NCBI GenBank assembly: GCA_019661785.1
Contig: JAIFWP010000002.1
Coordinates: 39,059-103,058, forward strand
Length of the DNA stretch: 64,000 nt
Source of the DNA: Candidatus Parcubacteria bacterium
Lineage (GTDB): Bacteria; Patescibacteriota; Minisyncoccia; Phycocordibacterales; Zambryskibacteraceae
Reading direction: 5' to 3'
This document shows, piece after piece, positions 30,952 through 45,400 of this stretch; position 1 is the first letter of the stretch; each line of letters opens with the position of its first letter. Made by a program: the position numbers and the translations under genes. Under the pieces are notes generated by a model that was not told the DNA's origin, searched no databases, and worked only from the letters and a program-made list of their open reading frames with translations.

Positions 30952-32051
30952 TAGCGATTCATCGGCATGAGTAGGTAGCGGAAGCTCTTATCCCCTACGC
31001 CTTCGACGAGTATGGGTTTGCCTTCTCCGGCAAAGGAGAGCGCGAGGCTATCCGATGGAGTTGAGCCGAATCCGTCGGTCAGGTATCTATGGTTAACGCT
31101 CACAGCAAGCTCCCCGCCTTCAAGCGCAGCAGGGACCAGGTAGGTGTTCTCCCCAACGTTTTGGTTCTTAGACTCTATCTCGAATTGATTCTTCTTTGGA
31201 GCTAGAGAGAGCTTCAGCTGGTTGAAATTATCGGTGAAGACGAGTGCAGTCTTGAGTGAGGTTATGAGGTCCTGCTTTAGGACTATGGCTTTAGCCACGC
31301 TCACACTCGGGATAATCTGTTTATAGTCTGGGAAGGTGCCGTCAATAGTCCTTGAGGTTATGTATATGTTCTCCGAGCGCAGAGCTATCTGGTTGTCCTC
31401 GATAGTGATGGATACATCGGTGTCCAGACCGTCTAGAATCCTTATAATCTCGACGGCGTTCTTCTGCGGGATGAGGATTTGGGTGAAGTTAGGAATCTTC
31501 TTCACCTTGACCTTCTTCTCCGCAAGGCGGAAGGAGTCCGTAGCGACGAAGACAAGACTCTCGGCATCGTGCAAGAGACAAATCGACGATAATTCCGGCT
31601 TCACACTGCCCGTAGCTGCCGCGTAGATGACCGCACGAAGCCCTTGGACGAGATCTTTGGCCGGTAATGAGAAGTTGCTCCCTCCCCCTATCTCCGGGAT
31701 GATAGGGAACTCCTCAGGAGGCAAGGTCATAACTTTGGAGTGGACGCTCGGGGTGTCGAGAGAGAGCGTCTGGCCGTCTGAAGATAGGGTGATGTTCTTC
31801 TCTCGGGTGAGCGACCCGAGGAGAGAGGAAAATACTTGTGCTGGCACCACCAAGTGTCCCTCCTCAAGCACCTTCACAGGCAGATGGATAGATATGCCGA
31901 GGTCTAGATTCGTGGCTCTCACGGTGAGTATGGCGCCAAGAGCCTCAAGTGAGAGGCCTGATAGCACAGGCAAGGTTGGGTTCCTTTGAGCAACCTTCTC
32001 CGCTCTCTGGATGGCTTCCACAATCTTCTCCCTAATTGCTTCTATTTTCAT
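30951..32051 (-). CDS. dnaN: DNA polymerase III beta sliding clamp
   Basis: A 366-aa protein with the three-domain clamp layout, positioned immediately downstream of dnaA. Confidence 0.85.
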   Translation of the reverse strand: MKIEAIREKIVEAIQRAEKVAQRNPTLPVLSGLSLEALGAILTVRATNLDLGISIHLPVKVLEEGHLVVPAQVFSSLLGSLTREKNITLSSDGQTLSLDTPSVHSKVMTLPPEEFPIIPEIGGGSNFSLPAKDLVQGLRAVIYAAATGSVKPELSSICLLHDAESLVFVATDSFRLAEKKVKVKKIPNFTQILIPQKNAVEIIRILDGLDTDVSITIEDNQIALRSENIYITSRTIDGTFPDYKQIIPSVSVAKAIVLKQDLITSLKTALVFTDNFNQLKLSLAPKKNQFEIESKNQNVGENTYLVPAALEGGELAVSVNHRYLTDGFGSTPSDSLALSFAGEGKPILVEGVGDKSFRYLLMPMNR

Positions 32052-32221
32052 ATATAAATACTTGTTACTACTACTAGGGGTGTGGATATGTGGAAAACCT
32101 GGATAACCCTTAATGTTGAGCTTAAAACATCGGAAGCGAAAATGAAAGGACGGGGATAGCTCGGGCTCATTGGGGATGGTTTTGCGTTCATGATGAGTTT
32201 ATCCGCTGTTATACACAGCTA
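32052..32221. promoter_or_regulatory. dnaN-dnaA intergenic region with DnaA boxes (oriC candidate / dnaN promoter)
   Basis: TTATACACA at 32209-32217 is a perfect TTATNCACA box. Two adjacent one-mismatch boxes lie on the opposite strand at 32081-32097 (tgtggatat, tgtggaaaa), and the AT-rich stretch tatataaata is at 32051-32060. Confidence 0.5.
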
Positions 32222-33571
32222 CTACACAACCAAAAGGTTCCTAATCTGGGATAACTCTTGGCCTAGGAGCTGGTCTTGCTTTAGGTCCTCCTTTATCTTC
32301 TCGCACGAGTGGATGACCGTGGTGTGGTCGCGGCCGCCGAGCTTCTCCCCTATGGATGGATATGAGATGTTGAAGTCCTCCCTCAGGATGTACATGATGA
32401 TTTGGCGGGGCTTGATGACCTCCTTTCTCCTGGTCTTCTCATAGATGCTGTCTTCCTCGACAGAGTAGAACTCAGAGATGATCTTCACTATGTCTTTGAC
32501 CGCCACGGCGCGCTTAGGCTTCTGGTTCGACTTCACCAGGTTCCTTACATCTGTCACAGATATCTCGCGGCCCTTGAGCTGAGCGTGAACGATAAGAGTG
32601 TTGAGAGCTCCTTCGAGGTCGCGGATGTTCCCTACTACGGTGTGGGCTAGGTAGTCGATGACTTCTTGCGAGAGGACCATGCCGTGCGTGCGAGCTTTAG
32701 CCGTGAGGATGGCAATGCGAGACTCCTGGTCTGGCTGGGGGATGTCGATAATCATGCCGGCAGACATGCGGCTCTTAAGCCTGTCCTCGAGTCCTTGGAT
32801 GAAGTGCGGATGCTTGTCGGAAGAGAAGATGACCTGCTTGTTGTTGTCGTAGAGGGTGTTGAAAAGGTGGAAGAGCTCTTCCTGGAACTTCTGCTTCTCC
32901 GAGAAGAACTGGATATCGTCCATGATGAGGACGTCGTACTTGCGGTACTTCTCCTTGAAGATGCTCATCTTCTGGTTTTGGAGGGCGTTCATGCAGTCTT
33001 GTCCGAAGCGCTCCGAAGTCATGTAGAAGACGCGCTTAGAGGGGCTTGTGGCCTTCACGTGGTTTCCTATCGCTTGGATGAGGTGTGTCTTGCCGTGGCC
33101 AGTGGAGCCGTAGATGAAAAGAGGATTGTACATGAGGCCGGGAGACTTGATGACTGCTTGGGCTGCCGCGTGAGCCAGCTCGTTGAAGGGGCCGATGACG
33201 AAGGTGTCGAAGGTGTAGCGGGGGTTTAAGTTGTCCTCTTTGTTCACATTGGTCTCAGGCAAAGGCAGGCTGGTCATGCCGGCGGCTTGAGACTTATCAT
33301 CACGGGCGTCTCGCCTCTTAGGCTCGTCGCGGTTGATGGCGTACTCTATGGCGTGTATGGTGTGGTCTCGCTCGCGGAGGAGTTTTAGGATGGTAGCGTG
33401 GTACCTAGCCTGGAACATGTCGCGAGCGAAGGCGTTCGGCACGGAGAGAATCATGGTGTTCTCGTCGCGTTTGACTATGTGGGTATCCTTGAACCAGGTG
33501 GCGAAGGCCGGTTTTGACACAGCAAGCTCTACTTCTGCCAATATGCTGTCCCAAAGTTGTCGATAGTCCAT
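32222..33571 (-). CDS. dnaA: Chromosomal replication initiator protein DnaA
   Basis: Carries the AAA+ Walker A GSTGHGKTHL, Walker B DDIQF and a C-terminal DnaA-box-binding HTH. It is divergent from rpmH. Confidence 0.9.
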   Translation of the reverse strand: MDYRQLWDSILAEVELAVSKPAFATWFKDTHIVKRDENTMILSVPNAFARDMFQARYHATILKLLRERDHTIHAIEYAINRDEPKRRDARDDKSQAAGMTSLPLPETNVNKEDNLNPRYTFDTFVIGPFNELAHAAAQAVIKSPGLMYNPLFIYGSTGHGKTHLIQAIGNHVKATSPSKRVFYMTSERFGQDCMNALQNQKMSIFKEKYRKYDVLIMDDIQFFSEKQKFQEELFHLFNTLYDNNKQVIFSSDKHPHFIQGLEDRLKSRMSAGMIIDIPQPDQESRIAILTAKARTHGMVLSQEVIDYLAHTVVGNIRDLEGALNTLIVHAQLKGREISVTDVRNLVKSNQKPKRAVAVKDIVKIISEFYSVEEDSIYEKTRRKEVIKPRQIIMYILREDFNISYPSIGEKLGGRDHTTVIHSCEKIKEDLKQDQLLGQELSQIRNLLVV

Positions 33572-33624
33572 ATGAGTTTAGAAAGACGCTAGTAGTATAT
33601 CCTTCGAATCGAAATACCCGAAAC

Positions 33625-33653
33625 TTGTTCAAACCGTGAAAATTGTTTATAAT
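33625..33653 (+). promoter_or_regulatory. Putative sigma70 promoter of rpmH-rnpA-yidC
   Basis: The -35-like element ttgttc is separated by a 17-nt spacer from TATAAT at 33648-33653, about 25 nt upstream of the rpmH ATG. Confidence 0.35.
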
Positions 33654-33677
33654 GTGTTCATAACCTGTTGACGAACA

Positions 33678-33812
33678 ATGTCTACAACATACCAACCAAA
33701 GAAGCGCAAGAGAGCCCGCTCGCACGGGTGGAGGAAACGAGCCGTATCTAGCGGTGGACGCCGCACGGTCGTCGCTCGCCGCCGCAAGGGGCGCAAGCGC
33801 TTGACTGTCTAA
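33678..33812 (+). CDS. rpmH: 50S ribosomal protein L34
   Basis: A 44-aa ORF, MSTTYQPKKRKRARSHGWRKRAVSSGGRRTVVARRRKGRKRLTV, that falls below the ORF-track length cutoff. It occupies the classic position before rnpA. Confidence 0.8.
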   Translation: MSTTYQPKKRKRARSHGWRKRAVSSGGRRTVVARRRKGRKRLTV

Positions 33813-34144
33813 TGCTTTCGAGGGGTAACAGGATTCCTAGGAGACTCTTCTCCCCCATACTCTCGAGTCGGAGCTTCAAAAACTCGCTTCATTTCACTCT
33901 TCGCATAGGAGAGTCCAGCGTTAATGTGCCCAGAATCGCAGTTTCCGTGTCTAAAAAGGTCGCTAAGGGCGCCGTAGAGAGAAATACGCTCCGTCGGAGG
34001 GTCTACGCAGTCTTAAAAGACGAAATCAGAGGACTTAAGGCGGGCCTCTATCTCTTCGTGGCGAAAAGAGGAGCCTCTGGCATGAAGGGCGAAGCGCTCA
34101 AGAAAGAGGTGCTAGAGCTTCTCAATTCAGTTCAAAGGGCATAA
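33812..34144 (+). CDS. rnpA: Ribonuclease P protein component
   Basis: Carries the RNR-like motif SKKVAKGAVERNTLRRRV. Its start overlaps the rpmH stop (TAATG). Confidence 0.75.
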   Translation: MLSRGNRIPRRLFSPILSSRSFKNSLHFTLRIGESSVNVPRIAVSVSKKVAKGAVERNTLRRRVYAVLKDEIRGLKAGLYLFVAKRGASGMKGEALKKEVLELLNSVQRA

Positions 34145-34154
34145 GATTAGTCTC

Positions 34155-34868
34155 ATGTCGTATTTGTACCACCACTTCCTTGTTGCTCCGATATATAACG
34201 TATTGGTCTGGCTTCTCAATGTACTCCCCTTCTCCGATGCGGGGCTCGCTATCATCATCATCACAATCCTCGTCCGCCTTATCCTATTCCCGCTTTCGAA
34301 GAAGGCCGTGACCGCTCAAGTGGAAATGCAAAGAATAGCTCCCGAGCTTGAGAATATAAAAACCAAGTACCAGGATGACCAGGAGGAGCAGGCCAGAAGA
34401 ACCTTGGCTTTGTATAAAGAGAGAGGAGTGAACCCCTTCTCCGGCATTCTTGTGCTCGTGATACAGCTCCCAGTCATCTTCGCTCTTTACAGAATCTTTT
34501 TGTACACCGGTTTTCCGAAGATAGACTCGACCATGCTCTATACCTTCATCCATGTGCCAGCACAGGTGAGCTCAGTCTTCCTTGGGCTAGACCTGACAGA
34601 GAAGAGCGCTATCCTTGCTTTGCTCGCGGCTGTTGCCACTTTCTTCCAGATACGCTTGGCTACAGTTAATCTGCCAAAGAAGAGCGGCAAGTCTTCGTTC
34701 GGAGATGATCTCGCAAAGAATATGCAAGCTCAGATGAAATACTTTCTCCCGGTGCTTGTCTTCTTCATCGCTTATAAGATTTCAGGAGTCATTGCTCTCT
34801 ACTGGCTTACCACAAACCTATTTACCATCGGCCAAGAGATAGTCGTGCGAAGGAAGCTTAAGGTATGA
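34155..34868 (+). CDS. yidC: Membrane protein insertase YidC (short Oxa1-like form)
   Basis: A 237-aa protein with 5 TM helices and conserved YidC core helices. It occupies the rnpA-yidC position. Confidence 0.7.
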   Translation: MSYLYHHFLVAPIYNVLVWLLNVLPFSDAGLAIIIITILVRLILFPLSKKAVTAQVEMQRIAPELENIKTKYQDDQEEQARRTLALYKERGVNPFSGILVLVIQLPVIFALYRIFLYTGFPKIDSTMLYTFIHVPAQVSSVFLGLDLTEKSAILALLAAVATFFQIRLATVNLPKKSGKSSFGDDLAKNMQAQMKYFLPVLVFFIAYKISGVIALYWLTTNLFTIGQEIVVRRKLKV

Positions 34869-36084
34869 GCTTAAGAGCCCAGAGGGAGAGGTCGGATTTA
34901 TTTATAAAGAAGAGGTAATCCTCGCTAGGGCTTAGGAACGGCTTCTCTACATCTATGTCGGTATGGAAGTCAGTGCTTGGGTCCGCTAAAACATCTGTCG
35001 AGTTTGTTGTCACATCTATCCTCCACACTCTATCGGCGAAGCTAGTTAGGCCCTTGTACCACAAGTCAGGCTGACCACTTGGGAATCCGCCGCTCGGCGC
35101 GCCGCAGTAGACAGTGGAGGAGGACTTCACGCTCCAGGCGCACTTCTCTGGCAAGGTGTTTGGGAATAAGGTGGTCGAAGCTTTCGATGAGAGGTTCAAT
35201 ATAGAAAACGTGTTCGACCCATCACTCTCGTAGGCAAAGAGCGCCCGCTTGCCGTCTGGGGAGAGGTTTGCAGTGAGTCCTAGGAGAGGGCCAAGTACCT
35301 TTGTCATAGCGCCGGTCGAGAGATTCAAGGTATAAGCATATCCTAGGGCTTGCTCGGAGGCCTTGGTATAAATGAGAGCCGTTGAGGCATTTACAGGCAC
35401 AAGGCGCCAGTTAGTGAACGGCATCGTGAAAAGGGTTTTGGGCTTCTCCCCGAGGAAGCTAGACAGGGCTAGAGCGCCTGTGTCATCGAGGACATACAAG
35501 AGATTGCCGTTAGGCATCACGGCAAGTTCGTCCACGCTGCCGCGGAGCAAGGTTGCTGTCTCGGTGTATAAGTTTGATGTAGAGGTGGACTTCGGGGCTA
35601 TAAGAGTGATAGATGCGTTCTTCACTACATCATGCCCCTCGTCGAGTGAGCGAGCCACAAAGCCGGATGCATCGCCTTTCCACAGCGCCTCATATACCTT
35701 TGGTATAGTCGTGTTCGCTATCTGCTGCTTCTCAAGAGTGGCAAGGTTTATTTCAAGTACATGTCCTGTGGCGCGGTCGACGTAGCGCACAAACGTGAGG
35801 CCGTTCTTCGCAAAGCTCACGCTGCCTGCTACCGGGGCGTCCGAGAGTTTGAAGAGCTTGGCCAGAGGCTTGCCATCTGCTCCCAAGCCGGTTTGTGTCC
35901 CATCGTCATCATTTGAACCATCATTTGTCACAGGATTGCTAGAGCCATCAGGAGATGTGCCGAATGGCAGACTATTGATGATAGTCGATACGACTGGGGA
36001 CTTGCCGCCCAAGAGGAAGTACAAGACAGCCGTACCGGCAATGAGGACTAGAGGTATAGAAATGAATAGGGCTCGTCGGGACAT
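34858..36084 (-). CDS. Membrane-anchored PD40/TolB-like beta-propeller protein (last gene of T4SS-like operon)
   Basis: An N-terminal TM segment followed by repeated PD40-like motifs (SPDGKRALFAYESDGS, MPNGNLLYVLDD). Confidence 0.45.
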   Translation of the reverse strand: MSRRALFISIPLVLIAGTAVLYFLLGGKSPVVSTIINSLPFGTSPDGSSNPVTNDGSNDDDGTQTGLGADGKPLAKLFKLSDAPVAGSVSFAKNGLTFVRYVDRATGHVLEINLATLEKQQIANTTIPKVYEALWKGDASGFVARSLDEGHDVVKNASITLIAPKSTSTSNLYTETATLLRGSVDELAVMPNGNLLYVLDDTGALALSSFLGEKPKTLFTMPFTNWRLVPVNASTALIYTKASEQALGYAYTLNLSTGAMTKVLGPLLGLTANLSPDGKRALFAYESDGSNTFSILNLSSKASTTLFPNTLPEKCAWSVKSSSTVYCGAPSGGFPSGQPDLWYKGLTSFADRVWRIDVTTNSTDVLADPSTDFHTDIDVEKPFLSPSEDYLFFINKSDLSLWALKLIP

Positions 36085-36085
36085 G

Positions 36086-36988
36086 TTAGATTCTTACTCT
36101 TATGCCTTCAGGGATATTGCCGAAGCAAGTGAATTTGCTTTTGTAGCTCGCCAGCTTGGCGCTAGTCATAAATGAGTTATAACGAGAGCTATTGCAAATG
36201 AGGTGATATTGAAAGTCGACATTGCCTGTGACCTGAAGGTCTCTTAGGAATCTTGCTACCTGAGTCTCAGTCGTATCTGGCGTAAGGCTAATGTCAATAC
36301 AGCTTCCAGCTTGAGACAAGTCTTTTGTGTTACAAACAGTCAATGGCGTTGTAGATGTGGCAAAAGGAAAGGCCGCGCTTATCTCCCATGGGACGGCCAC
36401 ATACTCTCCTTTGGCATCGTCTATCGCGTCACGGACAACACTCACTTTAGACCAGAAGGCCAAGAGCCGATCATTCAAGGTTTTCTGTACGTAACACGGG
36501 TTATTGGTGCAGGCGTTTGAGTCTATCGGGATTATCGCTGCGATGGGCACGCAATTATTGGTGCAGCCTAATTCGGCCGCAGTTTTAGTTGCTAGGCTTC
36601 CCTTGATTGCCTGGCCTTGCTTGACTGGCTGCAGGGCAAACTGGATATTAACTAGGCCTGGATTCACTGTATTAAGTATCGTGTAGGCGCTTATGGCCAA
36701 AAGCAGCCCGATGAGAGCGTTTTGTATAGTCTCTTTGGCGGAGGATTTGCCGCTGAAGGCATCTGTCGACATGTACTGTATGCCGCCAATGATAATGCGT
36801 ATGACTGCCAATCCGCCAGCGATAGCGATGATGAGCTTTATCATGGCCGGGATGTACGTGCTCACATCTATAGAGCCGACTATGTCCCCGCCTTTTCCTA
36901 GGGGAAGTTTTTCAAGGAGGGTGTAATCAGCCGCGTGGAGATGTGTGATAAGGAAGGAGAGCATGTTAGAAGCTGTTCTGCTTGCCAA
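36086..36988 (-). CDS. VirB2/TrbC-like pilin fused to a Cys-rich C-terminal domain
   Basis: The N-terminal ~115 aa form two hydrophobic helices (MIKLIIAIAGGLAVIRIIIGGIQYM...ALIGLLLAISAYTILNTVNP), as in TrbC/VirB2 pilins. A 180-aa domain with 12 Cys follows. Confidence 0.4.
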   Translation of the reverse strand: MASRTASNMLSFLITHLHAADYTLLEKLPLGKGGDIVGSIDVSTYIPAMIKLIIAIAGGLAVIRIIIGGIQYMSTDAFSGKSSAKETIQNALIGLLLAISAYTILNTVNPGLVNIQFALQPVKQGQAIKGSLATKTAAELGCTNNCVPIAAIIPIDSNACTNNPCYVQKTLNDRLLAFWSKVSVVRDAIDDAKGEYVAVPWEISAAFPFATSTTPLTVCNTKDLSQAGSCIDISLTPDTTETQVARFLRDLQVTGNVDFQYHLICNSSRYNSFMTSAKLASYKSKFTCFGNIPEGIRVRI

Positions 36989-37712
36989 ATTGTACCAGGA
37001 AACTCTTGTCGAGCGGCTGCACGAGGGCAGATTTGTTCCTTGCCTCCACTGTTACCCTAGAGCTGCCGCTCGAGTTGTCTGGTATGCGGTAGGTGACCTT
37101 GTTGCCTGAGCGGTCGTCGCTCCCGCTTGCGAGCCATCGGTATGTCTCAGCCGGAGCAGTGCGGCTTGATACGCCAGAGAAGAACGGTAGGGCTGAGAAG
37201 GAGACCTCTTGTCCGCCGAGGTCGAAGCTTTCCCCTATGGCACGGTGAAGCATGAGCCCATAGAGAGGGCTATCTTCAACAACTAGAGTCTCTGAGGTCG
37301 TTGGGATGAGGCTCACCGAAGCGCTGCCTACATCTGTTTGTCCGTCTGGCAACGTGACGTCGACTCGAACTTCGGTTGGGAGAGAGAGGACAGAGTCATT
37401 CCATGAGAGGGTCCTCCTCCCTGCTCCAGAGCTGTTGCCGAGCACGGTACCGCCTTGAGTCCATTTATATATAAGAGCGTTGGGGTTAGTGTTTCCGCTC
37501 ACCACAGCCACCAAAGTTATCCTGGTCTGGTGCCCCCATAAAGCACGTCCAAGGTAGAAGGGAGGAGTGTAAGTCTCTCCTTGCCAGAGGATGTCCACCT
37601 TGGTTGGCGCTGGCAGAGTCTGTGCGGATGCTCCCACTGGCAGAATCAAAGTCAAAAAAAAGAGATGAGGGAGCAGAGCTCTTCGAAATGTCATCTGTCT
37701 ATTATATACCAA
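36966..37712 (-). CDS. Secreted hypothetical protein (signal peptide) in T4SS-like operon
   Basis: A 248-aa protein with an N-terminal signal peptide (LTLILPVGASAQ), a beta-rich sequence, and no known family. Confidence 0.4.
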   Translation of the reverse strand: MVYNRQMTFRRALLPHLFFLTLILPVGASAQTLPAPTKVDILWQGETYTPPFYLGRALWGHQTRITLVAVVSGNTNPNALIYKWTQGGTVLGNSSGAGRRTLSWNDSVLSLPTEVRVDVTLPDGQTDVGSASVSLIPTTSETLVVEDSPLYGLMLHRAIGESFDLGGQEVSFSALPFFSGVSSRTAPAETYRWLASGSDDRSGNKVTYRIPDNSSGSSRVTVEARNKSALVQPLDKSFLVQFGKQNSF

Positions 37713-38067
37713 CAGTTTTCTTGATTTTGTAGTCTAGGGCTATCCGAGCGATAAGACCGGTCCAGACAGGAAGATCGCCCAAGAATGGGATTAATTTTAT
37801 GACGACACTGGCGCCGATTAGCTTGCCCCTTCTTGCTGTGAAGAAGTCGAGACCCTTCAGTTTGAACCAAAGCCAGAAAGTAAAGATAGCCACTGGCGGT
37901 ACAAGCAGCCATCCGAGGAAGATAAAATCCAAAAGAGCTTGCATTGCGTCGAAAAACAAAGCCACAGCTATCATGAAAGCAATAGTTTTGTTGTCGAGCT
38001 CGGGCTGTTTTTTGGACTCAGGCTCTGTTGGCGGTTGCGGTGCTTGTTGCTGTGGTTGCGGCGGCAT
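37702..38067 (-). CDS. Small 3-TM membrane protein with Pro/Gln-rich N-terminus, immediately downstream of VirB4
   Basis: A 121-aa ORF. It overlaps the VirB4 stop by 50 nt. Confidence 0.35.
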   Translation of the reverse strand: MPPQPQQQAPQPPTEPESKKQPELDNKTIAFMIAVALFFDAMQALLDFIFLGWLLVPPVAIFTFWLWFKLKGLDFFTARRGKLIGASVVIKLIPFLGDLPVWTGLIARIALDYKIKKTVGI

Positions 38068-39889
38068 TTGGTTCCTTAGACTCCTCTAATTCTAACTTGG
38101 CTTTCTTCATGGCGAGGACCTGGCCTGGGTCTGAGGTGATGATCTGGTCCTCGGTATAGCTTGCAATGACCTTAATGGCCACATGCTTCAATCCGGCAAA
38201 GAAGATACCCTCCCCCACATCAGACTCGAGGAGGAGATACTTCTCTTCGTCGGTGAGGTTAAAGGTCTTCTGCAAGTTGTCGATAGTGGTCGGCGACTGC
38301 TTCAGGAGTATTTGGATGGAGGAGTTTGTGATGATAGGCAGACCATAAGGCGATTTCAAGAAGTCGCCTACGTCTTGAGTGATGGTGGCGACGCCCAAGT
38401 AGTACTTGCGTCCGCGCTTCACGAGGCCGGTGAGGAAGCTCGCTGTGTCGTCCGACTTCATCATCCACCAGGCCTCGTCGATGACGAGGAGGCGCTTCTT
38501 CAGCTCTCTTCTCACGGCATTCCAGATGAAGTGGGTGACGATGTACATGGCTATGGGCTTCAACTCATCTTCCATATCGCGGAGCGAGAAGACAACGAGC
38601 TTCTTCGATATGTCGACATTTGTCGGTCTGTTTATGAATCCTGACCAAGTGCCCTTGGTGTACTTTGTAAGGCGTTGGGCTAAGGACTCCCCTCCCTCAA
38701 GGCCGGTGAGCACGAGCTCGAAGTCGCTCATGAGAGGCGGCTCTATAGAGCGGAAGTCAGAGTCGGCAGTGATGTCTTTAAGAGCATAGGTCTCAGTGAT
38801 GGCGCGGTCGATGAGAGCATCTTCCTCGGCGGTGAGTCCGCCCATCATGAGGCGGAAGAGGCCCACGAGGTTAATGATGTTCGAGCGCAAGACATTTGCC
38901 GGGTCTTCGTCTGCTACTGGTATCGGAAGGTCGAAGGGGTTGATGTGGTGCTCGGAGTTTAAGGAAATCTTGAAGTACCTGCCGCCCACGACCTCGGCCA
39001 TGTACTCGTACTCGTTTTCTGGGTCCATAATCATGACATCTGTGTCGAACATGAGTGTTCTCAAGATTTCGAGCTTGGTGAGGTAGCTCTTGCCGGCACC
39101 GGACTTAGCAAAGGTGACGGAGTTGTAGTTCTCAAGACTGAATCGGTCGAAGAGCACGAGCGAGGAGTTGTGCCTGTTCACTCCGTAGAGGATGCCCTTG
39201 TCGCTCGTGAGGTCAAAGGAGGTGAATGGGAAGAGCGAAGAGAGCGGTGATGAATTTAACTTCTGGTGCACGCCCAGGAGGTCGTCACCAAGTGGCAGAG
39301 TCGACTTGTAGCCCTGCTCTTGTTGGAAGAGAGCCGGCTTCACATAGACGAGCTTGGCCTCGAGGATGCCCTTGATCTCGTTCTCGATTTTGTCGAGCTC
39401 AAGCTCGGAGTCGGCGTAGATAGTTATATAGAGCCCAACGTCGAAGAGCTTTTCCTGTGCTTGCTGGAGCTGGTCGCGCAAGTTCTCCAGGTCTTGGTAG
39501 GCCACATCGAGCATTGGATCGCGCACTAAGCCCTTGTCCTCTCTCTCGTGAATCTGCGATTCTACCTCGGCCACCTTCTTTTGGAACTGGTGCAGTATCT
39601 TAGACGTCTCGATAGGATGCACGAAGATAGCCACGTCGAAGACCTTGTCCATATTGAGTACCGGCGAGAACCACTCTTCGGAGAGGAAGCGCGGATAAGA
39701 GATGACGAAGAAGCTCCTAAGTATCTTCTCACCCAGGTCGAGTCCTCGGGGAGAGATTTTCAATGCTGAGGGGGCGATAATGTCTTTCAATTCCAATGCT
39801 CCGGCCTGGTAAACCTCAGCTGGCAGGATAGAAGCGAGATTTGGCTTCTCTTCCTTCTTCCTTCCTAATAATGTGTCGAAGAGTCCCAT
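38018..39889 (-). CDS. virB4: VirB4/TraE-family type IV secretion ATPase (Gram-positive type), C-terminal 623-aa part
   Basis: Carries RSFFVISYPRFLSEEW (the TraE/TcpF-type motif), Walker A FAKSGAGKSY, and Walker B LLVIDEAWWMM. Confidence 0.75.
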   Translation of the reverse strand: MGLFDTLLGRKKEEKPNLASILPAEVYQAGALELKDIIAPSALKISPRGLDLGEKILRSFFVISYPRFLSEEWFSPVLNMDKVFDVAIFVHPIETSKILHQFQKKVAEVESQIHEREDKGLVRDPMLDVAYQDLENLRDQLQQAQEKLFDVGLYITIYADSELELDKIENEIKGILEAKLVYVKPALFQQEQGYKSTLPLGDDLLGVHQKLNSSPLSSLFPFTSFDLTSDKGILYGVNRHNSSLVLFDRFSLENYNSVTFAKSGAGKSYLTKLEILRTLMFDTDVMIMDPENEYEYMAEVVGGRYFKISLNSEHHINPFDLPIPVADEDPANVLRSNIINLVGLFRLMMGGLTAEEDALIDRAITETYALKDITADSDFRSIEPPLMSDFELVLTGLEGGESLAQRLTKYTKGTWSGFINRPTNVDISKKLVVFSLRDMEDELKPIAMYIVTHFIWNAVRRELKKRLLVIDEAWWMMKSDDTASFLTGLVKRGRKYYLGVATITQDVGDFLKSPYGLPIITNSSIQILLKQSPTTIDNLQKTFNLTDEEKYLLLESDVGEGIFFAGLKHVAIKVIASYTEDQIITSDPGQVLAMKKAKLELEESKEPNAAATTATSTATANRA

Positions 39890-39890
39890 A

Positions 39891-40532
39891 TTACTTTTTT
39901 ACTAGAGCTTTCTCTGTCTCGCCTGGGTTGAAGGCTTTATAAAACAGCTCTATCACTTCGTCAGTGCCGAGCCTTGCCACTCGTATGCCAGTGCGCACTA
40001 GCCCCTGCTCAACGATAGCCAGGCGTTCCTCGAGCTGGGTACGAGCTTCCTCGAAGCCGGAGGTCTTCTCCCCTGCCTTATCCTTAGAGCTTTTCTTGCC
40101 GAGGAAGGAGGTCAGAGCGCCGACCTTCTCCCCTGAGATGGCACCCGGGTTATAGGAGACTACTACAAAGAAGTTCTTGGTCATAATGTTAGTCGACTCG
40201 GTGAAGCTCCTTATGAACTCTATATACTCCCTGGTCTGGATTTTCATAAGGTCTACTTGCTGCTCCTTCTCCTGCTTCTCAAGGAGAGCGAGATAGGGGC
40301 GGATGTCGAGTTTTCTCGATTGGATGACGATTTGGACCGAGAAGTCGAGCGAATTGAGGAAGTCTTGGAACTGGAGGAGAATAGCGTTCTTCTCATCCTC
40401 GGATTTGAGGGAGAAGTTCAAGGACGAGGCCAAGAGGATGCCTCGCATGCCGCCATCCTTCTCTAAGATGATGCCGTCGCGGACTTCTTTGATAGGAACG
40501 AAAGATTGAGTCGAGCTTGAACTCGGTGCCAT
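39891..40532 (-). CDS. VirB4 N-terminal-domain-like protein (separate ORF)
   Basis: FVPIKEVRDGIILEKDGGMRGILLASSLNFSLKSEDEKNAILLQFQDFLNSL resembles the extreme N-terminus of Gram-positive VirB4/TraE proteins. The ORF ends in a TAA-n-ATG junction with the ATPase ORF. Confidence 0.4.
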   Translation of the reverse strand: MAPSSSSTQSFVPIKEVRDGIILEKDGGMRGILLASSLNFSLKSEDEKNAILLQFQDFLNSLDFSVQIVIQSRKLDIRPYLALLEKQEKEQQVDLMKIQTREYIEFIRSFTESTNIMTKNFFVVVSYNPGAISGEKVGALTSFLGKKSSKDKAGEKTSGFEEARTQLEERLAIVEQGLVRTGIRVARLGTDEVIELFYKAFNPGETEKALVKK

Positions 40533-40539
40533 GAGTAAA

Positions 40540-40977
40540 TTATACAGTATCTTTGGTCTGATCTTTTGTAATGGGGTTCGACTGATTCTTCACATCGAGC
40601 TCGAAGGTGAGGTCACGGAGCTTTGACTGTGACAGCTTGGGCACGTATACCTGGTCGTAAGGTTTGCCGGCCGGATCATCAGCCTTCCCCTTAGTCTCTT
40701 CACTCCGCTTCCATATATATAGTCTGCCGCCCACGTAGTACTTAAAGAAATCTTCAATGATGAGGGCGAAGGGGCGCTCGTTGACCTTGAAGAAGGCTAG
40801 GGCCAAGCCTAGACCGGCTACAGGCAGGGAGAGGATGATGGCTATGAACTTGGGCAAAAGGGTGAAGAGGACCGCGCACAAGCCCGCCGCTCCGGCGAGG
40901 TAGACGAACTGCTTGAAGGTCAAAGGGCCGAATATCTTGTCCTCCACCTCAATGTATTGTGGTACTTGGAAGCGCAT
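40540..40977 (-). CDS. PrgI-like (VirB3-analogue) small membrane protein
   Basis: MRFQVPQYIEVEDKIFGPLTFKQFVYLAGAAG followed by two TM helices matches the PrgI-family N-terminal signature. Confidence 0.45.
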   Translation of the reverse strand: MRFQVPQYIEVEDKIFGPLTFKQFVYLAGAAGLCAVLFTLLPKFIAIILSLPVAGLGLALAFFKVNERPFALIIEDFFKYYVGGRLYIWKRSEETKGKADDPAGKPYDQVYVPKLSQSKLRDLTFELDVKNQSNPITKDQTKDTV

Positions 40978-40978
40978 G

Positions 40979-41620
40979 TTAGTTGGTGGGCTCTCTATAT
41001 GGATCTAAGCCGCCAGGGTACTTCGAACTTTGGCTTGGGCTTGCGACGACCTGGGTCAGTTTCTCTGTTATAAAATCCTTCGGCTTATCGGCCGGCATGC
41101 TTGGCAAGTTGGCGGGAGCAAGAGAGGTCTTTGACGCATTCATCACAGGAGGCTCGAGCTTGAGCTCTTGAGGAGGGGCCTCAAGTGGGATGCGATTTAC
41201 AGAAGGCGCGCTCGCCCCGCTCTGCTCGACGACAACTCTCGGAGCAATCTCCTGTGTAGCCGGCTTAGTATCTGGCATGCTCTGCAAAGTCTCATCGGTT
41301 TTCTGTGCTAATTCAGTCGCTTTGGCTAATATGACTGCAAAGACTTTATCCTCAATCTCTTTGGCAAGGGTCACCGCTTTAGACATATCGATGCCGAGCT
41401 CTCTAGCAATATTAGCTGCGAAGTTATCATCGCTATCGAAGCTATAGATGATGAGCATCGTCTCAGTTTCAAGGCTATCGGCCTTGGCTTCATCCAGCCC
41501 ATTCATTATCGAGATGCCTCGAGTGAGCTTGCGCCAAGGAGTGAGTGAAATGGCTCTCTGCACTGGCTGAGGCAAGGTCTTGAATTGCTCTTGTATTAAC
41601 TTGTCTGTGTCTTGCTCCAT
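40979..41620 (-). CDS. Hypothetical cytoplasmic protein in T4SS-like operon
   Basis: The ORF track starts at 41698 and overlaps the upstream gene. Met27 (41620) is preferred, giving a helical N-terminal half and a Pro/Ala/Ser-rich C-terminal half. Confidence 0.35.
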   Translation of the reverse strand: MEQDTDKLIQEQFKTLPQPVQRAISLTPWRKLTRGISIMNGLDEAKADSLETETMLIIYSFDSDDNFAANIARELGIDMSKAVTLAKEIEDKVFAVILAKATELAQKTDETLQSMPDTKPATQEIAPRVVVEQSGASAPSVNRIPLEAPPQELKLEPPVMNASKTSLAPANLPSMPADKPKDFITEKLTQVVASPSQSSKYPGGLDPYREPTN

Positions 41621-41621
41621 A

Positions 41622-43664
41622 TTATGGCGTTGGTGTTGCTGGCGGCGGCACTCCTCCTCCAGTTGGCGGAGTTGCTGGCGTGGCAGGGGCTCCCGCATCT
41701 TCTGCGGCTTGTCCAGCTTTGTTTAACTCCTCGGCCAATTTGTCAGCTGGCTTCTTATCCTTTGCTTTTTTACGTATAGCTATTGCTCCGGCCAGGTTCT
41801 CTCTCTTTACTGGACCGAATATGAGTACGCGGCCGGTTGTATCAAAGCCCACATATCTGTTGCCCATGCCGAAGGTCTTCTGCTCCTCAATCTCTTTGGC
41901 GTAGGCTTCCGCCCTGCTTCTTTGTGCGCTTTTAACTTCCTCTGGCGCCCAGCCAATTCCTGCTGCCTTGGCCTGATCTTTGGCTTCTTTTTCGCTGAGG
42001 CCAGTTGCCTTGAGCCTCTCCACTTCGCGCGTCCTTTCTGTTTCCAGCCTGTCCATTTCAGCCTTAGAGCCCTTTTTATCAAAGCCGTTTTTAATAAGAT
42101 CTAATTGCTTTCTCTTGCGTGCCTCGTCTTCATTGACTCCCTTGAGATCGTCAACATCCTTCTGGGCAGCGGCTATCCTGATTGCGTTGCCAGTTTGCTT
42201 GGCCGCCTCGAGCTTTTTCTCCGCGTCAGAAATGACGATGTCAGACGGTTTGAAGTTCTCAGCAGCTTGCTCCGCGCCCTTGATCTTGTTCTTCAAGTCA
42301 GCAGCGAAGCCTCCCTTCTGAGCTTTGCCCGCATCAAGCGCTCCGCCAACTGGAGTCGCGCGCAGGTCGAAGCTCGATGCCGCCGTACCTCGGCCCGCAG
42401 CGAGAGTGTACTTAGCAAGCTTGGAGAAGCGAGATGAAGAGACGGCCGTTTTCTTCAGGGCCTCGCTGTCGGCTACTGCTTGACCGAGTCTGCCGACAGT
42501 ACCGCGATTGAAGCGCCCTGCCAGGCCAAGGCTTGTGCCTCCAGCCAGTCCAAGCGCTGCGCCAGTGAGCTTCTTTACCCCGCTTCCCGCTCGCTCGGCC
42601 CAGCTCTTCGAGACGATGAGCGAGACTATGAGGAAGGCGATGATGACTATGAAGTTGAGGAAGGTCGGCACGAGCCCCGCTTCGAAGTGGGCACTCGCTG
42701 CGCCGTTTGCCGCTGTTTTGACGGTTCCTGATAGGGCGGCGCTGAAGTCGCTCGGTGCCCCGTTCAGGTTCGCTTTTGTGATGCCTTGGATGACGACTAT
42801 AGATACCCAAGTGAGGAGGAAGTAGATAGGTGCAAAGAAGGCTTGTCCCAAGAGGGCGTCCCACCACTGTCCGCTATACTTCTTCACTCCGGGCAAAATA
42901 TTAGCGACAAAGGCTATTGGTGAAAGGATGAGGACAAAGATGAGCACGACGTAGCGTATGACGAACATGATACCTATAGCGAAGAAGATAAACGCCGAAA
43001 CTAGAAGGACGATAGAGGCCAGGATGCCCATGATGGAGAAATTTGATATATGCGATAATGCGCCGCCAGAGGCTTGCCAGAGAGTAGTGATACCCATGGG
43101 TTCGACGATAGCGTTTGATATGCCGCTTGAGAGGAAGTCAGCACCGGCACTAGGCGCTATAGCGCGGTAGAAGGTAAGGGCCAGCAGGTTCGATGCGTCG
43201 ATAATGACTTTGGTAAAAAATAGACTGAAGTTTATGAGTATGGCGGCTATAACTGTGCGCACGATAGTCTCGCGATAGTTCCCTTCCCCAAAGATGGTCA
43301 TAATGGCCGTGTAGAGGAGGACGAAGATGAATCCCATGTTGGCCACGTCGCGTATGACTCCCCAGGCCGTGTCGATGGCCGGCAAGTTGGCGAAGTTCTC
43401 CGCCATCTTTGTCACGGTGAAGTAGACTGCGGCATTGAGCGCCACGCCTCCGAGCATGGTGAGGAAGCTAGTTAGCTTCAAGAGCACGAGGACTAGCGGT
43501 GAGAGGATGGTGCCGATGAAGTCGAGCGTGACAAGGCCTGCGGCTTTGGCCCCAATGCTCGCGATGGCATCAGGGATAACGTTCTGGGCATGCGCTACAG
43601 GGACAAATCCAACTATGCTTATGGCGAGGACCAGGGCGGCGATGTATGGGGCGCTCTTTCTCAT
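41622..43664 (-). CDS. VirB6/TrbL-like polytopic membrane protein with long coiled-coil and Pro-rich tail
   Basis: A 680-aa protein with a signal peptide and at least 6 TM helices in its first 370 aa. A ~280-aa Lys/Glu/Ala-rich region follows, ending in PATPATPPTGGGVPPPATPTP. Confidence 0.45.
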   Translation of the reverse strand: MRKSAPYIAALVLAISIVGFVPVAHAQNVIPDAIASIGAKAAGLVTLDFIGTILSPLVLVLLKLTSFLTMLGGVALNAAVYFTVTKMAENFANLPAIDTAWGVIRDVANMGFIFVLLYTAIMTIFGEGNYRETIVRTVIAAILINFSLFFTKVIIDASNLLALTFYRAIAPSAGADFLSSGISNAIVEPMGITTLWQASGGALSHISNFSIMGILASIVLLVSAFIFFAIGIMFVIRYVVLIFVLILSPIAFVANILPGVKKYSGQWWDALLGQAFFAPIYFLLTWVSIVVIQGITKANLNGAPSDFSAALSGTVKTAANGAASAHFEAGLVPTFLNFIVIIAFLIVSLIVSKSWAERAGSGVKKLTGAALGLAGGTSLGLAGRFNRGTVGRLGQAVADSEALKKTAVSSSRFSKLAKYTLAAGRGTAASSFDLRATPVGGALDAGKAQKGGFAADLKNKIKGAEQAAENFKPSDIVISDAEKKLEAAKQTGNAIRIAAAQKDVDDLKGVNEDEARKRKQLDLIKNGFDKKGSKAEMDRLETERTREVERLKATGLSEKEAKDQAKAAGIGWAPEEVKSAQRSRAEAYAKEIEEQKTFGMGNRYVGFDTTGRVLIFGPVKRENLAGAIAIRKKAKDKKPADKLAEELNKAGQAAEDAGAPATPATPPTGGGVPPPATPTP

Positions 43665-45400
43665 GGGTTTGTTTCCTGAGTGCTGTCAGATACCTTAATA
43701 CTGCCGCAAGATACTGTGTCGATTGTATTTTGATCGGCATCTAGGGCTGATACGCTGGCCTTCTTGTCGCCCTCGCTAGTATATTTCAAAGCTAGGGTGT
43801 CAGAAGTAGCGTCGGAGCTGACATCGTCGCCCGACCATACGTACGAGGCGGTAGTGGTCGGTGCAGAGTTCACGGCCCATGTTACGAGAGCATTCGTATT
43901 AACGAAGGTCTTGTCTGGTGAGCAGGACAAGGCGATAGGCTGGCCATCGGGGTTGTTCACAGTGCCAATGCCGCGGTACTGGCACTTCTTTGCTATGCCT
44001 GGTACTGGGTCTCCGCCGAAGGATGAGATAGCGCATTTTACATTATTTTCAGCCGTACCAATATTATAAATACCGTTGGCGCCAAAACGTACCTGTTTTG
44101 TTCCGGGAAATGAGCATGTGCCGCCCTCGCTTGCACAGGTTATCCAGTTCGTGGATCCTTGGCCTTCCACCACGACACCTCTAGTCTGCCCGTAGTATGC
44201 GCATGTCTTAGGCACGACATTAAATTGAGCGGGCAGTTTGACAGCCCCGAAGACATCACTCGAACACTTGGCCCCATCAGTAAGAGTAAGCTCTATGTAA
44301 GTGCCGGCTGCCCCATAGCGCACCTTCTCCTCTCCGTCGAAGACGCACTGCTCGCCTTCCTTGGCGCAAGTAATCCATCCGAATTCAGGCATCTTCAAAG
44401 TAGATGAGTCCGCGCCAGCATTGAAGCTGTCGTTATACTTGCTGCTGAAGAGCCCCTTTGGACCGAAGACGTATCTCTGCAAGAGCCCGCTCGCGAAGGC
44501 TCCTACGAGCTGGTCTACCTGAGTCGCATTGACGAGCTTGTTCATGCCAGTTGGGAGAGTGTCATTGAGCTGCTTGGCGATGACAGAGCCAGGTGTGACA
44601 ACGTCGCCGTAGTCTAAGCAGGTTCCGGCAGGCTTATCGAGGTCGAATTTGCCGTAAGTGAAAGTGACATTCTCCTCTGGGACCACCCCATTCAGATAAT
44701 CCTCTATTACATCATCCGGTATCTTCGGATTCTTAGCCAAGCAGGGCTTGTAGCTTAGGAAGCCGCTGCTTATCTGCCTGTCTGTCTGAGCTAAGCCGAG
44801 CTCGTTCGCGAGCCTCGAGTCGATGTTTGACTTAATGTTGATATAAGAGCCGTATGGGTTGTTGTTGTCTTGCTGGGTCATATCGAACCAGGCTCCCCAT
44901 CCCCCGGCACTGAAGCTCTTGTAGAAGTCGGTAAGGTTCCTCCCTATCTGGTCGAAAGTACATTGGGGCTGGTATTCCTGCACATATTGCTGCACGAGCG
45001 AGAGCTTGATCTGAGCCTGGAAAGGCGAACACACGAAGCCTAAGTTGGAGCCGCTTATCGCGTCCGTAATAACTCCCTCGCCGATTTTGCCGAAGTATCT
45101 TTTCGGATTTGTCACATAGGCTGGGTTGCCCTCGAAGCCGGTATTGGCCCAGGTGATAGTCGACTTGACCATATTGTCGATAATCCTCCTTGCATAGACT
45201 TGCGCGGCGGCGTCGATAAGCCTCTTAGCCAGAGCCGCTACGTCCGTCGTGATAGAGGTGTCGACGATACCGAATATCGCTTGCGCCTTAGGCGCGAAGG
45301 CCGGGGCATAGAAGAAGCTTGCCACTGTGAGCATGAGCAAAGTCCCCAGGATCTTTCCGCTCACTTTTTCTGCAAAGTTTTTTGTAAGTTTAGAGTCCAT
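43661..45400 (-). CDS. Large secreted protein with duplicated 4-Cys ~75-aa modules
   Basis: A 579-aa protein with a signal/TM at its N-terminus. The modules WITCAKEGEQCVFDGEEKVRYGAAGTY...KC...KTCAYYG and WITCASEGGTCSFPGTKQVRFGANGIY...KC...KKCQYRG form a tandem repeat. Confidence 0.4.
   Translation of the reverse strand: MDSKLTKNFAEKVSGKILGTLLMLTVASFFYAPAFAPKAQAIFGIVDTSITTDVAALAKRLIDAAAQVYARRIIDNMVKSTITWANTGFEGNPAYVTNPKRYFGKIGEGVITDAISGSNLGFVCSPFQAQIKLSLVQQYVQEYQPQCTFDQIGRNLTDFYKSFSAGGWGAWFDMTQQDNNNPYGSYINIKSNIDSRLANELGLAQTDRQISSGFLSYKPCLAKNPKIPDDVIEDYLNGVVPEENVTFTYGKFDLDKPAGTCLDYGDVVTPGSVIAKQLNDTLPTGMNKLVNATQVDQLVGAFASGLLQRYVFGPKGLFSSKYNDSFNAGADSSTLKMPEFGWITCAKEGEQCVFDGEEKVRYGAAGTYIELTLTDGAKCSSDVFGAVKLPAQFNVVPKTCAYYGQTRGVVVEGQGSTNWITCASEGGTCSFPGTKQVRFGANGIYNIGTAENNVKCAISSFGGDPVPGIAKKCQYRGIGTVNNPDGQPIALSCSPDKTFVNTNALVTWAVNSAPTTTASYVWSGDDVSSDATSDTLALKYTSEGDKKASVSALDADQNTIDTVSCGSIKVSDSTQETNP

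Follow-up and report, generated by a model that had tools for sequence, protein, structure and literature searches.

Does a virB4 gene that lies in two pieces represent a broken gene or a natural arrangement? This question is raised by two consecutive open reading frames, here called ORF-N and ORF-C, within the window, i.e. the whole stretch of 64,000 nt that was analysed. Full-length VirB4 proteins of monoderm systems are single polypeptides of about 750-900 aa, whereas here two cistrons of 213 and 623 aa take their place. An earlier note on this DNA had described both ORFs, and its coordinates, lengths and quoted motifs are all correct when compared with the ORF list and the sequence (Table 1); for the presence of the two ORFs as such, chance is not an issue. 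It had favoured a natural split over random decay and had kept a sequencing frameshift or early pseudogenisation as possible. Our data suggest that the pair very probably reflects a natural, ancient putative fission of virB4 within the chromosomal T4SS of a member of the Parcubacteria (Patescibacteria/CPR); database entries with identical proteins carry the name Candidatus Parcubacteria.

Table 1. Positions of the two ORFs, their motifs and the surrounding genes in the window.
Feature	Position	Strand	Description
ORF-N	39891..40532	(-)	213 aa, begins MAPSSSSTQSFVPIKEVRDGIILEKDGGMRGIL; TrsD-like stand-alone protein, first sub-domain of the VirB4 N-terminal domain
ORF-C	38018..39889	(-)	623 aa, contains LRSFFVISYPRF; short VirB4; residues 1-227 N-terminal domain, second part; residues 228-586 RecA-like ATPase domain
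Junction TAAtATG	39887..39893	(-)	ORF-N stop, 1 spacer base, ORF-C start
Walker A AKSGAGKS	39086..39109	(-)	ORF-C residues 261-268
Walker B LLVIDE	38474..38491	(-)	ORF-C residues 467-472
PrgI-family (VirB3-like) membrane protein	40540..40977	(-)	145 aa; Pfam PF12666 PrgI E 1.2e-10, above cut-off
Surrounding chromosomal T4SS-like operon	34858..45400	(-)	putative outer limits; tightly packed gene junctions
680-aa hydrophobic protein	41622-43664		in operon; no family match
T4SS-pilin-like protein	36086-36988		in operon; Pfam T4SS_pilin E 2e-5, just below cut-off
dnaA	32222-33571		neighbour
dnaN	30951-32051		neighbour
rnpA	33812-34144		neighbour
yidC	34155-34868		neighbour

ORF-C carries the C-terminal RecA-like P-loop NTPase of a VirB4 ATPase. 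It matches the NCBIfam models CD1110 VirB4 (positions 184-733 of 752, E 3e-110, 369.5 bits with a cut-off of 325) and VirB4_plasma (positions 293-893) as well as Pfam P-loop_TraG (E 9e-26). With both Walker motifs in place and a CD1110 score above cut-off, the ATPase core is located where the earlier note had put it. Residues 228-586 align to PDB 4ag5, the C-terminal domain of VirB4 from T. pseudethanolicus (E 6.5e-40), and residues 256-552 to TrwK 446-735. As the 4ag5 match is confined to this part, residues 1-227 are left as N-terminal-domain sequence. Residues 31-227 are covered by CD1110 from position 184 onwards and by a weak CagE_TrbE_VirB match.

ORF-N matches VirB4_plasma at positions 101-234 of 894 (E 3e-12), CD1110 at positions 2-120 of 752 (E 6e-6) and the TrsD/TraD model at positions 21-144 of 201 (E 7.5e-5), the latter with 22.6 bits versus a 200-bit cut-off. 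Neither the local Pfam-A copy (no significant family) nor a sequence search of the PDB (no match) revealed a relative, such that the homology is visible solely through NCBIfam, structure and a precomputed Pfam label (PF26593, 'TraC-like'). Among 32 members of the ORF-N family the TrsD/TraD model (NF041427) is matched by 31, the best of them with E 1.2e-10, and the N-terminal part of a VirB4 model by all 32. Direct comparison with TrsD of pSK41 using hhalign gives a probability of 18% (E 1.4e-3). Judged from these similarities, ORF-N seems to be a TrsD/TraD homologue or to work like one; it scores below the NCBI threshold and is thus not a member of that family.

The AF2 model of ORF-N (pLDDT 81.6) was compared with the PDB. 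The significant matches are TrwK/VirB4 of R388 only, and they lie in its N-terminal domain. Full-length VirB4 models are likewise matched by ORF-N only at their extreme N-terminus, which is the part that had been claimed for the 213-aa ORF. An assignment to a family other than VirB4, named beforehand as the outcome that would speak against this claim, did not result. Moreover, ORF-N is under strong purifying selection (pN 0.03-0.22 vs pS 0.71-0.90).

How do the two products relate to each other? The alignment to full-length VirB4 that had been proposed as a check assigns each ORF its own colinear part of the NCBIfam models: ORF-N covers CD1110 positions 2-120 and ORF-C 184-733, and on VirB4_plasma the respective positions are 101-234 and 293-893. 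The segment missing from ORF-C is precisely the one present in ORF-N, hence the pieces are complementary and not duplicated. A VirB4-type N-terminal domain is found in both ORFs jointly and in neither alone. In addition there is one genuine single ORF (P0215, locus L089), residues 1-214 of which align to ORF-N (40% identity) and residues 225-791 to ORF-C 29-594 (56% identity). This natural fusion joins the pieces colinearly, which shows that the halves are parts of one protein. In the fusion a shorter linker of ~10 residues, unrelated in sequence, takes the place of the initial ~28 residues of ORF-C, and the tail of ORF-N (residues 208-213) has a pLDDT below 50 in the AF2 model. The split point is thus predicted to lie in a flexible segment. 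AlphaFold2 on the concatenated ORF-N and ORF-C, with a mixed and mostly unpaired alignment, gave a mean pLDDT of 51 and a pTM of 0.38, a quality too low for conclusions on the interface. A second candidate for a fused relative, P0366 (846 aa, 84% identical), is a gene-calling artefact; its DNA contains a TGA stop that was read as Trp, and it was therefore dropped as fusion evidence.

Homologues are abundant, with at least 8000 found for each half, and stand-alone homologues of both halves with the same lengths number in the thousands in Patescibacteria. The best 120 homologues of ORF-N are all 208-233 aa long and 119 of the best 120 homologues of ORF-C are 596-648 aa long. In the ORF-N family 149 of the best 150 clusters (50% identity) comprise 102-443 aa. 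The closest ORF-C homologues all belong to Patescibacteria. A profile search of genome contigs with a 12-sequence alignment yielded 75 GTDB species-level loci. All 75 show the same split and none a fused gene, which answers the proposed check on orthologous loci and, together with the selection on ORF-N, sustains a natural split rather than decay. At the protein level the split point is identical in the 75 loci: ORF-C homologues start with MG/MS-[ILF]-F, aligned to residue 1. The spacer between stop and start ranges from -4 to +481 nt; it is 10-122 nt in 17 of the relatives and shows the 1-nt geometry in eight of 75. Synteny around the pair is unchanged in L001-L003, and in four relatives a 23S_rRNA_IVP gene is inserted between the halves.

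Such separability could also mean that ORF-N works independently as an accessory protein. It would then be a paralogue of TrsD type with its origin in a VirB4 N-terminus and with a role such as assembly factor, regulator or adaptor, instead of a structural half that rebuilds the N-terminal domain together with ORF-C. The genes can be up to ~480 nt apart or have another gene between them, TrsD homologues of Gracilibacteria are not located beside virB4 (PMC12102498), and many family members carry extra C-terminal extensions, by which they reach 280-443 aa. We nevertheless consider this explanation unlikely, given that the pieces are complementary rather than duplicated by their CD1110 and VirB4_plasma coordinates, that a colinear natural fusion exists, and that the ORF-N model superposes on the N-terminal domain of TrwK.

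The junction itself is left to be considered. It reads AAG TAA t ATG GGA, with the stop at 39893-39891, the spacer at 39890 and the ATG at 39889-39887, and the frame of ORF-C relative to ORF-N is +1. The single-nucleotide spacing that had been noticed in TAATATG (39887-39893) is therefore real, yet the weight put on it was overstated. TAAnATG is found again at 40979/40977 and 36086/36084 in the same operon (two, probably three other boundaries have it) and the spacing varies widely among relatives. As TAAnATG is not conserved and recurs at other operon junctions, the translational coupling that had been suggested is plausible at the present locus and not required, given that relatives have spacers between -4 and about 480 nt.

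ORF-N ends in codons that make up an A AAA AAG heptamer in the correct register, the -1 slippery heptamer known from the dnaX frameshift site. Programmed recoding at the junction, by frameshift or readthrough, would yield a full-length fused VirB4 beside the separate products. However, ORF-C lies in the +1 and not in the -1 frame, and the -1 frame is closed by a stop some 10 codons further on. Relatives do not have the heptamer; their ORF-N ends e.g. with ...gcaaactaa or ...tctaactaa, and their spacers occur in all three frame relations including ATGA overlaps and gaps up to 481 nt. Frameshifting by -1 at A AAA AAG is thus rejected because of the wrong frame and the missing conservation of the heptamer, and recoding in general appears very improbable.

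The least probable explanation, with next to no likelihood left, is a sequencing or assembly frameshift or a recent pseudogenisation of a single ~836-aa virB4, to which the abutting ORFs with their 1-nt offset and the one relative with a single ORF (P0215, L089) would be suited, but which is effectively refuted by an NCBI record that contains the 213-aa and the 623-aa product in identical form (P0001, P0271), by 94-95% identical 213-aa copies from independent ENA and JGI assemblies, by the lack of fusion in 75 species loci with differing spacers, by the purifying selection on ORF-N and by the gene between the halves in four relatives.

The surroundings of the pair are those of a VirB4. According to Pfam, the gene of the VirB3-like PrgI protein is located immediately upstream of ORF-N and a T4SS_pilin-like gene downstream of the pair. 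The order PrgI, N-piece, ATPase is also found in L001-L003, L004-L006, L088 and L089. The operon abuts yidC-rnpA and dnaA-dnaN. No relaxase or T4CP was matched by Pfam among the ORFs between 28.5 and 49.9 kb of the window.

[quoted passage not shown] PrgI is expected to anchor the VirB4 N-terminal domain at the membrane and to be its partner. We propose that ORF-N and ORF-C would be translated from one polycistronic mRNA, giving two separate VirB4 polypeptides, whereby the start of ORF-C is probably aided by termination-reinitiation at TAAtATG, as may be the case at several other operon junctions. ORF-N and ORF-C would associate non-covalently and rebuild a VirB4-like N-terminal domain. By analogy to R388, this domain could bind PrgI at the membrane and mediate VirB4 oligomerisation, and an ATPase hexamer of ORF-C may then power assembly or secretion.

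The arrangement, in which a short virB4 comes after a TrsD-like gene, is real, ordinary and already known. TrsD homologues are the most abundant T4SS component in Patescibacteria, where 1,664 of them are located beside virB4 (Quiñonero-Coronel et al. 2025, Microb Genom, PMC12102498). The same study reports remote homology of TrsD to the VirB4 N-terminus, T4SS clusters near dnaA in Patescibacteria, TrsD homologues that do not adjoin virB4 in Gracilibacteria, and an essential TrsD homologue in S. epibionticum (T4SS described by Wang et al. 2023, as cited in PMC12102498). As in this system, the present locus combines a TrsD-like gene and, directly behind it, an MPF-FATA-like VirB4 with PrgI/VirB3, a VirB2/T4SS-pilin-like gene and dnaA nearby. 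There is no substantive difference, and the locus is an instance of it. That the two genes are complementary halves of a single split VirB4 is not stated in PMC12102498; it is shown here by coordinates, fold and the rare fusion. A literature search for 'split VirB4' found no papers, TrsD is absent from the main text of Guglielmini 2014, and neither TrsD nor a split is mentioned in the 2025 FEMS nomenclature review.

For annotation this means that the 213-aa gene is neither a pseudogene fragment nor 'hypothetical' and that the 623-aa gene is not truncated. Pipelines for T4SS detection that rely on the length of VirB4, or that filter out 'fissions' as errors, would go wrong at thousands of loci in Patescibacteria. 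Moreover, for TrsD/TraD, previously without assigned function, coordinates, fold and the rare fusion provide a concrete proposal for a role: these proteins would contribute the first sub-domain that the VirB4 N-terminal domain otherwise lacks, which is the VirB3-contacting part in R388. In all other respects the locus is an unremarkable example of a system already described.

The same cut is seen in other systems. The plasmid pSK41 of S. aureus encodes a 135-aa ORF, TrsD (227 aa) and TrsE (672 aa, DUF87). We take the 135-aa ORF to be a VirB3-like TrsC; the record annotates it as a hypothetical protein only. Residue 36 of TrsE aligns to residue 36 of ORF-C (E 9e-31), the split point is thus the same in pSK41. 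Gene order and sizes match TrsD/TrsE of pSK41/pGO1, with a protein of ~200-230 aa between the VirB3-like gene and a short VirB4. In contrast, the spacer in pSK41 is 14 nt instead of 1 nt, and pSK41 is conjugative and encodes a relaxase together with a VirD4-like coupling protein, while the present cluster is chromosomal and beside the origin. In its similarity to TrsD, ORF-N also falls well short of the cut-off for the family (22.6 vs 200 bits). The TraD/TraE pair of pIP501 is grouped with TrsD/TrsE by the name of NCBIfam NF041427 (TrsD/TraD family). Megaplasmids of Bacillota and Actinomycetota exhibit PrgI, an N-piece of 319-337 aa and an ATPase of 636-675 aa, cut at the same point. Full-length monoderm VirB4 (CD1110, NF045971; Mbov_0397, NF045975; PrgJ/TcpF type) is covered colinearly over the whole model by both ORFs, with the difference that its first ~180 model positions are a separate gene here. 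TrwK/VirB4 of R388 (PDB 7O41-7O43, 8RTB, 8RTD) shares 15-18% identity and is a single chain of a diderm MPF-T system.

One may speculate that the split inside the VirB4 N-terminal domain is a single ancient event, possibly with functional separation, although we regard this as rather doubtful. Such an event may be common to the Patescibacteria T4SS, the pGO1/pSK41(/pIP501) subclass and the Bacillota/Actinomycetota megaplasmids. If true, the split would be a synapomorphy by which the lineage that donated the T4SS to Patescibacteria is pinpointed. A separate VirB3-binding sub-domain might allow another stoichiometry or assembly order than that of the ATPase. For example, ATPase hexamers could dock reversibly to a membrane-resident PrgI-TrsD platform, which would be more than a neutral architecture.

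A different break is suggested by the SCO6880 family of Actinomycetota (NF042935, 477 positions). The PrgI ORF matches positions 12-79, ORF-N 238-291 and the N-terminal part of ORF-C 363-476, all of them weakly (E 1e-3 to 4e-2). Going by these weak matches, one protein combines VirB3 with what appears to be the entire N-terminal domain of VirB4, and the break would fall at the boundary between N-terminal domain and ATPase, not inside the N-terminal domain.

At a single base (39890) between the TAA stop of the TrsD-like ORF-N and the ATG start of the short VirB4 ORF-C, read directly from the sequence, the window's VirB4 is divided into two consecutive ORFs. The earlier note was accurate as to both ORFs, their 1-nt spacing, the quoted peptide motifs and the Walker A and B motifs within ORF-C. 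Coordinates are collected in the table.

Features of the T4SS region in the window
Feature	Position	Strand	Remark
dnaN	30951-32051		
dnaA	32222-33571		
rnpA	33812-34144		
yidC	34155-34868		
T4SS cluster	~34858 to ~45400	minus	adjoins yidC, rnpA, dnaA, dnaN
T4SS-pilin-like gene	36086-36988		in T4SS cluster
121-aa ORF	37702-38067	minus	called from first ATG; overlaps ORF-C 3' end by 50 nt
ORF-C	38018-39889	minus	623 aa, ATG start, +1 frame relative to ORF-N
Walker B, LLVIDE	38474-38491	minus	within ORF-C
Walker A, AKSGAGKS	39086-39109	minus	within ORF-C
ORF-N	39891-40532	minus	213 aa, stop TAA at 39893-39891
PrgI-family (VirB3-like) gene	40540-40977	minus	directly upstream of ORF-N; Pfam E 1.2e-10

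Both ORFs were aligned to full-length VirB4 models of NCBIfam. ORF-C covers positions 184-733 of the 752 of the CD1110 VirB4-like conjugal transfer ATPase model (NF045971; E 3e-110; 369.5 bits, exceeding the cut-off of 325 bits) and ORF-N positions 2-120 (E 6e-6). In the Mbov_0397 VirB4 model (NF045975, 894 positions) ORF-N is found at 101-234 (E 3e-12) and ORF-C at 293-893. As these coordinates are separate and successive, the two pieces are colinear and complementary, not duplicated, and ORF-N is indeed a VirB4-like N-terminus as proposed before. ORF-N also matches positions 21-144 of the 201 of the NCBIfam TrsD/TraD model (E 7.5e-5). All 32 sampled members of its family match a VirB4 model in its N-terminal part and 31 of the 32 match TrsD/TraD (best E 1.2e-10); Pfam recognises the family as PF26593 'TraC-like' (a precomputed label) and NCBI as 'TraC family protein'. 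Among PDB structures, the crystallised C-terminal domain of Thermoanaerobacter VirB4 (4ag5) resembles ORF-C residues 228-586 (E 6.5e-40), and residues 446-735 of TrwK, the R388 VirB4, correspond to ORF-C residues 256-552. Since the C-terminal domain match starts at residue 228, the N-terminal domain continues into ORF-C, taking in its first ~227 residues. Hence the break lies inside the VirB4 N-terminal domain and not at a domain boundary.

The two halves are homologous to VirB4, complementary, conserved and syntenic, and ORF-N is under purifying selection. We propose that both would be translated from one operon mRNA and that ORF-N would associate with the N-terminal ~227 residues of ORF-C to yield a VirB4-type N-terminal domain. 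The rebuilt domain would dock onto the PrgI/VirB3-like membrane protein and mediate oligomerisation, while the ORF-C ATPase would drive the machine. In R388 the VirB4 N-terminal domain (residues 15-400) is wrapped by VirB3 and forms the VirB4 dimer interface (PMC9259494). AlphaFold on the concatenated ORF-N and ORF-C gave a pLDDT of 51 and no support for an association. The main rival, in which ORF-N is an independent accessory factor, is disfavoured because ORF-C misses precisely the segment that ORF-N supplies.

Each half had at least 8000 homologues among the 5.8 billion proteins searched. The best 120 for ORF-N (70-100% identity) are all 208-233 aa long, and 119 of the best 120 for ORF-C (83-100% identity) measure 596-648 aa. 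Both proteins are present as identical copies in an NCBI Candidatus Parcubacteria record (P0001, P0271), and independent ENA and JGI assemblies carry 213-aa copies with 94-95% identity. Clustering at 50% identity left 2259 ORF-N relatives; 149 of the best 150 have 102-443 aa. Junctions were measured in loci of species-representative genomes (80 fetched, 61-81% identity). In the 75 that hold both genes, window excluded, the same split is seen and a fused, uninterrupted ORF in none (0/75). The split point is constant at the protein level, with ORF-C homologues starting MG/MS-[ILF]-F aligned to residue 1. For ORF-N, pN is low (0.03-0.22) at saturated synonymous sites (pS 0.71-0.90), and the two pairs with computable dS give a dN/dS of 0.015-0.047. 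The homologue lengths, the lack of fused loci, the constant split point and the low pN thus support the natural split suggested in the earlier note and exclude its alternative, a sequencing frameshift or early pseudogenisation.

Two apparent fusions were found. P0366 (846 aa, 84% identical to ORF-C; L088:2060-4600, ENA ERZ1758444) is a gene-calling artefact: its DNA reads TGA stop, 24-nt in-frame spacer and ATG, and the gene caller translated the TGA as Trp. Surveys that compare split with fused genes could be misled by entries of this kind. P0215 (L089:544-2937, GCA_964615945.1, contig CAZTUR010000004.1) is an uninterrupted 797-aa ORF under table 11 and the sole genuine single-ORF TrsD-VirB4 fusion among the best 150 of the 2259 cluster representatives. 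ORF-N aligns to its residues 1-214 (40% identity) and ORF-C 29-594 to residues 225-791 (56%). The junction DNA (GAG AAG CGA GGA GAG GTT ... GGG ATG GGC) carries CGA at the stop position of the relatives, followed by a GGAGAGG motif and the old start codon ATG. P0215 looks like a stop-to-Arg re-fusion of a split ancestor, judged from one MAG; possibly its single ORF is a sequencing error in that MAG. True fusion or not, its sequence confirms that ORF-N and ORF-C are successive segments of a single protein.

In two Parcubacteria relatives the short VirB4 has 1264 or 1267 aa (L038:4652-8446, L068:4709-8512), owing to a ~660-aa intein exactly within Walker A (GSGK|S...FIHN|SY) with Pfam domains Intein_splicing (E 2e-20) and LAGLIDADG_3 homing endonuclease (E 4.5e-21).

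With the intein allowed for, these two loci have spacers of 12 and 72 nt; after this reassignment the spacer measures -4 to +9 nt in 53 of the 75 relatives (exactly 1 nt in 8 of the 53) and 10-122 nt in 17. Four loci have 421-481 nt with a 23S_rRNA_IVP-family gene inside (Pfam-confirmed in 2/4, the rest by sequence resemblance), and in one (L066) the ATPase gene is broken. Conservation does not extend to the 1-nt TAAnATG spacer. In most relatives the ORF-C start is preceded simply by A/T-rich sequence with no Shine-Dalgarno-like motif. Within the window's operon TAAnATG recurs at 40979/40977 (40977-40981) and 36086/36084 (36084-36088), probably also at 41622/41620 (41620-41624), and another gene boundary shows an ATGA overlap (43661/43664). 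Tight junctions are therefore the general style of this T4SS operon, whose genes are packed throughout for coupled translation. The special weight that had been placed on TAAnATG is thus not upheld, given the widely varying spacers and the same geometry at other junctions. Termination-reinitiation coupling at the ORF-N/ORF-C junction is plausible, but coupling is neither peculiar to the split nor needed across the family. Programmed frameshifting at A AAA AAG, a recognised -1 slippery heptamer with which ORF-N ends, is rejected because ORF-C lies in the +1 frame and relatives lack the heptamer.

The genes that separate the TrsD-like gene from virB4 in four relatives encode 114-134 aa (L021:4686-5090, L035:4683-5027, L051:4686-5048, L063:1560-1934). 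Those of L021 and L063 are 23S_rRNA_IVP/bAvd-like four-helix-bundle proteins (PF05635); those of L035 and L051 were assigned by resemblance. L002 has a PF05635 gene just upstream of prgI. This small gene lands repeatedly in the T4SS operon.

Quiñonero-Coronel et al. (2025; PMC12102498) described a phylogenetically distinct, chromosomal and usually relaxase-less T4SS, widespread in Patescibacteria, often near dnaA, with a VirB4 related to the MPF-FATA class. They counted 2,272 TrsD homologues, 1,664 of them adjoining virB4; TrsD was given without assigned function, and its homologue is essential in Ca. Southlakia epibionticum. The window's system is exactly this one, and its dnaA adjacency agrees with the reported clusters. 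As the family is moreover in Pfam and NCBI, the split arrangement is already known. What is added here is modest: TrsD-like proteins and the short VirB4 as complementary halves of one VirB4, the break placed inside its N-terminal domain, a split point common to the window and pSK41 TrsD/TrsE, and one natural re-fusion (P0215).

The cluster presumably lies at the replication origin, beside dnaN, dnaA, rnpA and yidC (30951-34868). The neighbourhood is shared by L003 and L089. The 121-aa ORF, rich in hydrophobic residues, has no family match in Pfam or NCBIfam; L001, L003 and L088 carry genes of 125-187 aa at its position. Many loci are titled 'Candidatus Saccharibacteria', whereas their closest named relatives are Parcubacteria/Paceibacteria. 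L071 (DATGWK010000001.1, 5.7 kb, labelled 'Candidatus Nanoarchaeia archaeon') has a TrsD-like gene with 63% identity to ORF-N and is probably a mis-binned Patescibacteria contig.

Using tblastn against plasmids, the split arrangement was also found on Bacillota megaplasmids (Geobacillus pGspE55-1, B. thuringiensis BTB_502p) and an Actinomycetota plasmid (Miltoncostaea). On these large plasmids (L004-L006), typed non-mobilizable by PLSDB, PrgI is followed by a 319-337-aa 'hypothetical' N-piece matching ORF-N across >90% of its length, and then by a 636-675-aa DUF87 ATPase beginning at the position equivalent to the ORF-C start. A further match lies on a plasmid of Salinibaculum sp., which we believe to be a haloarchaeon. 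S. aureus pSK41 parallels the window's order with a 135-aa ORF (taken by us as trsC; annotated only as hypothetical protein), trsD (227 aa) and trsE (672 aa). TrsE residue 36 aligns to ORF-C residue 36 (E 9e-31), hence the split point is the same. Compared directly with the ORF-N profile, TrsD shows a similarity that is weak but colinear across 165 columns (E 1.4e-3 and 18% probability in hhalign). The actinomycete SCO6880 family model (NF042935, 477 positions) receives weak matches from the PrgI ORF, ORF-N and the N-terminal part of ORF-C, which suggests a third partition of the module, in which VirB3 would be joined to the VirB4 N-terminal domain and the ATPase kept separate.
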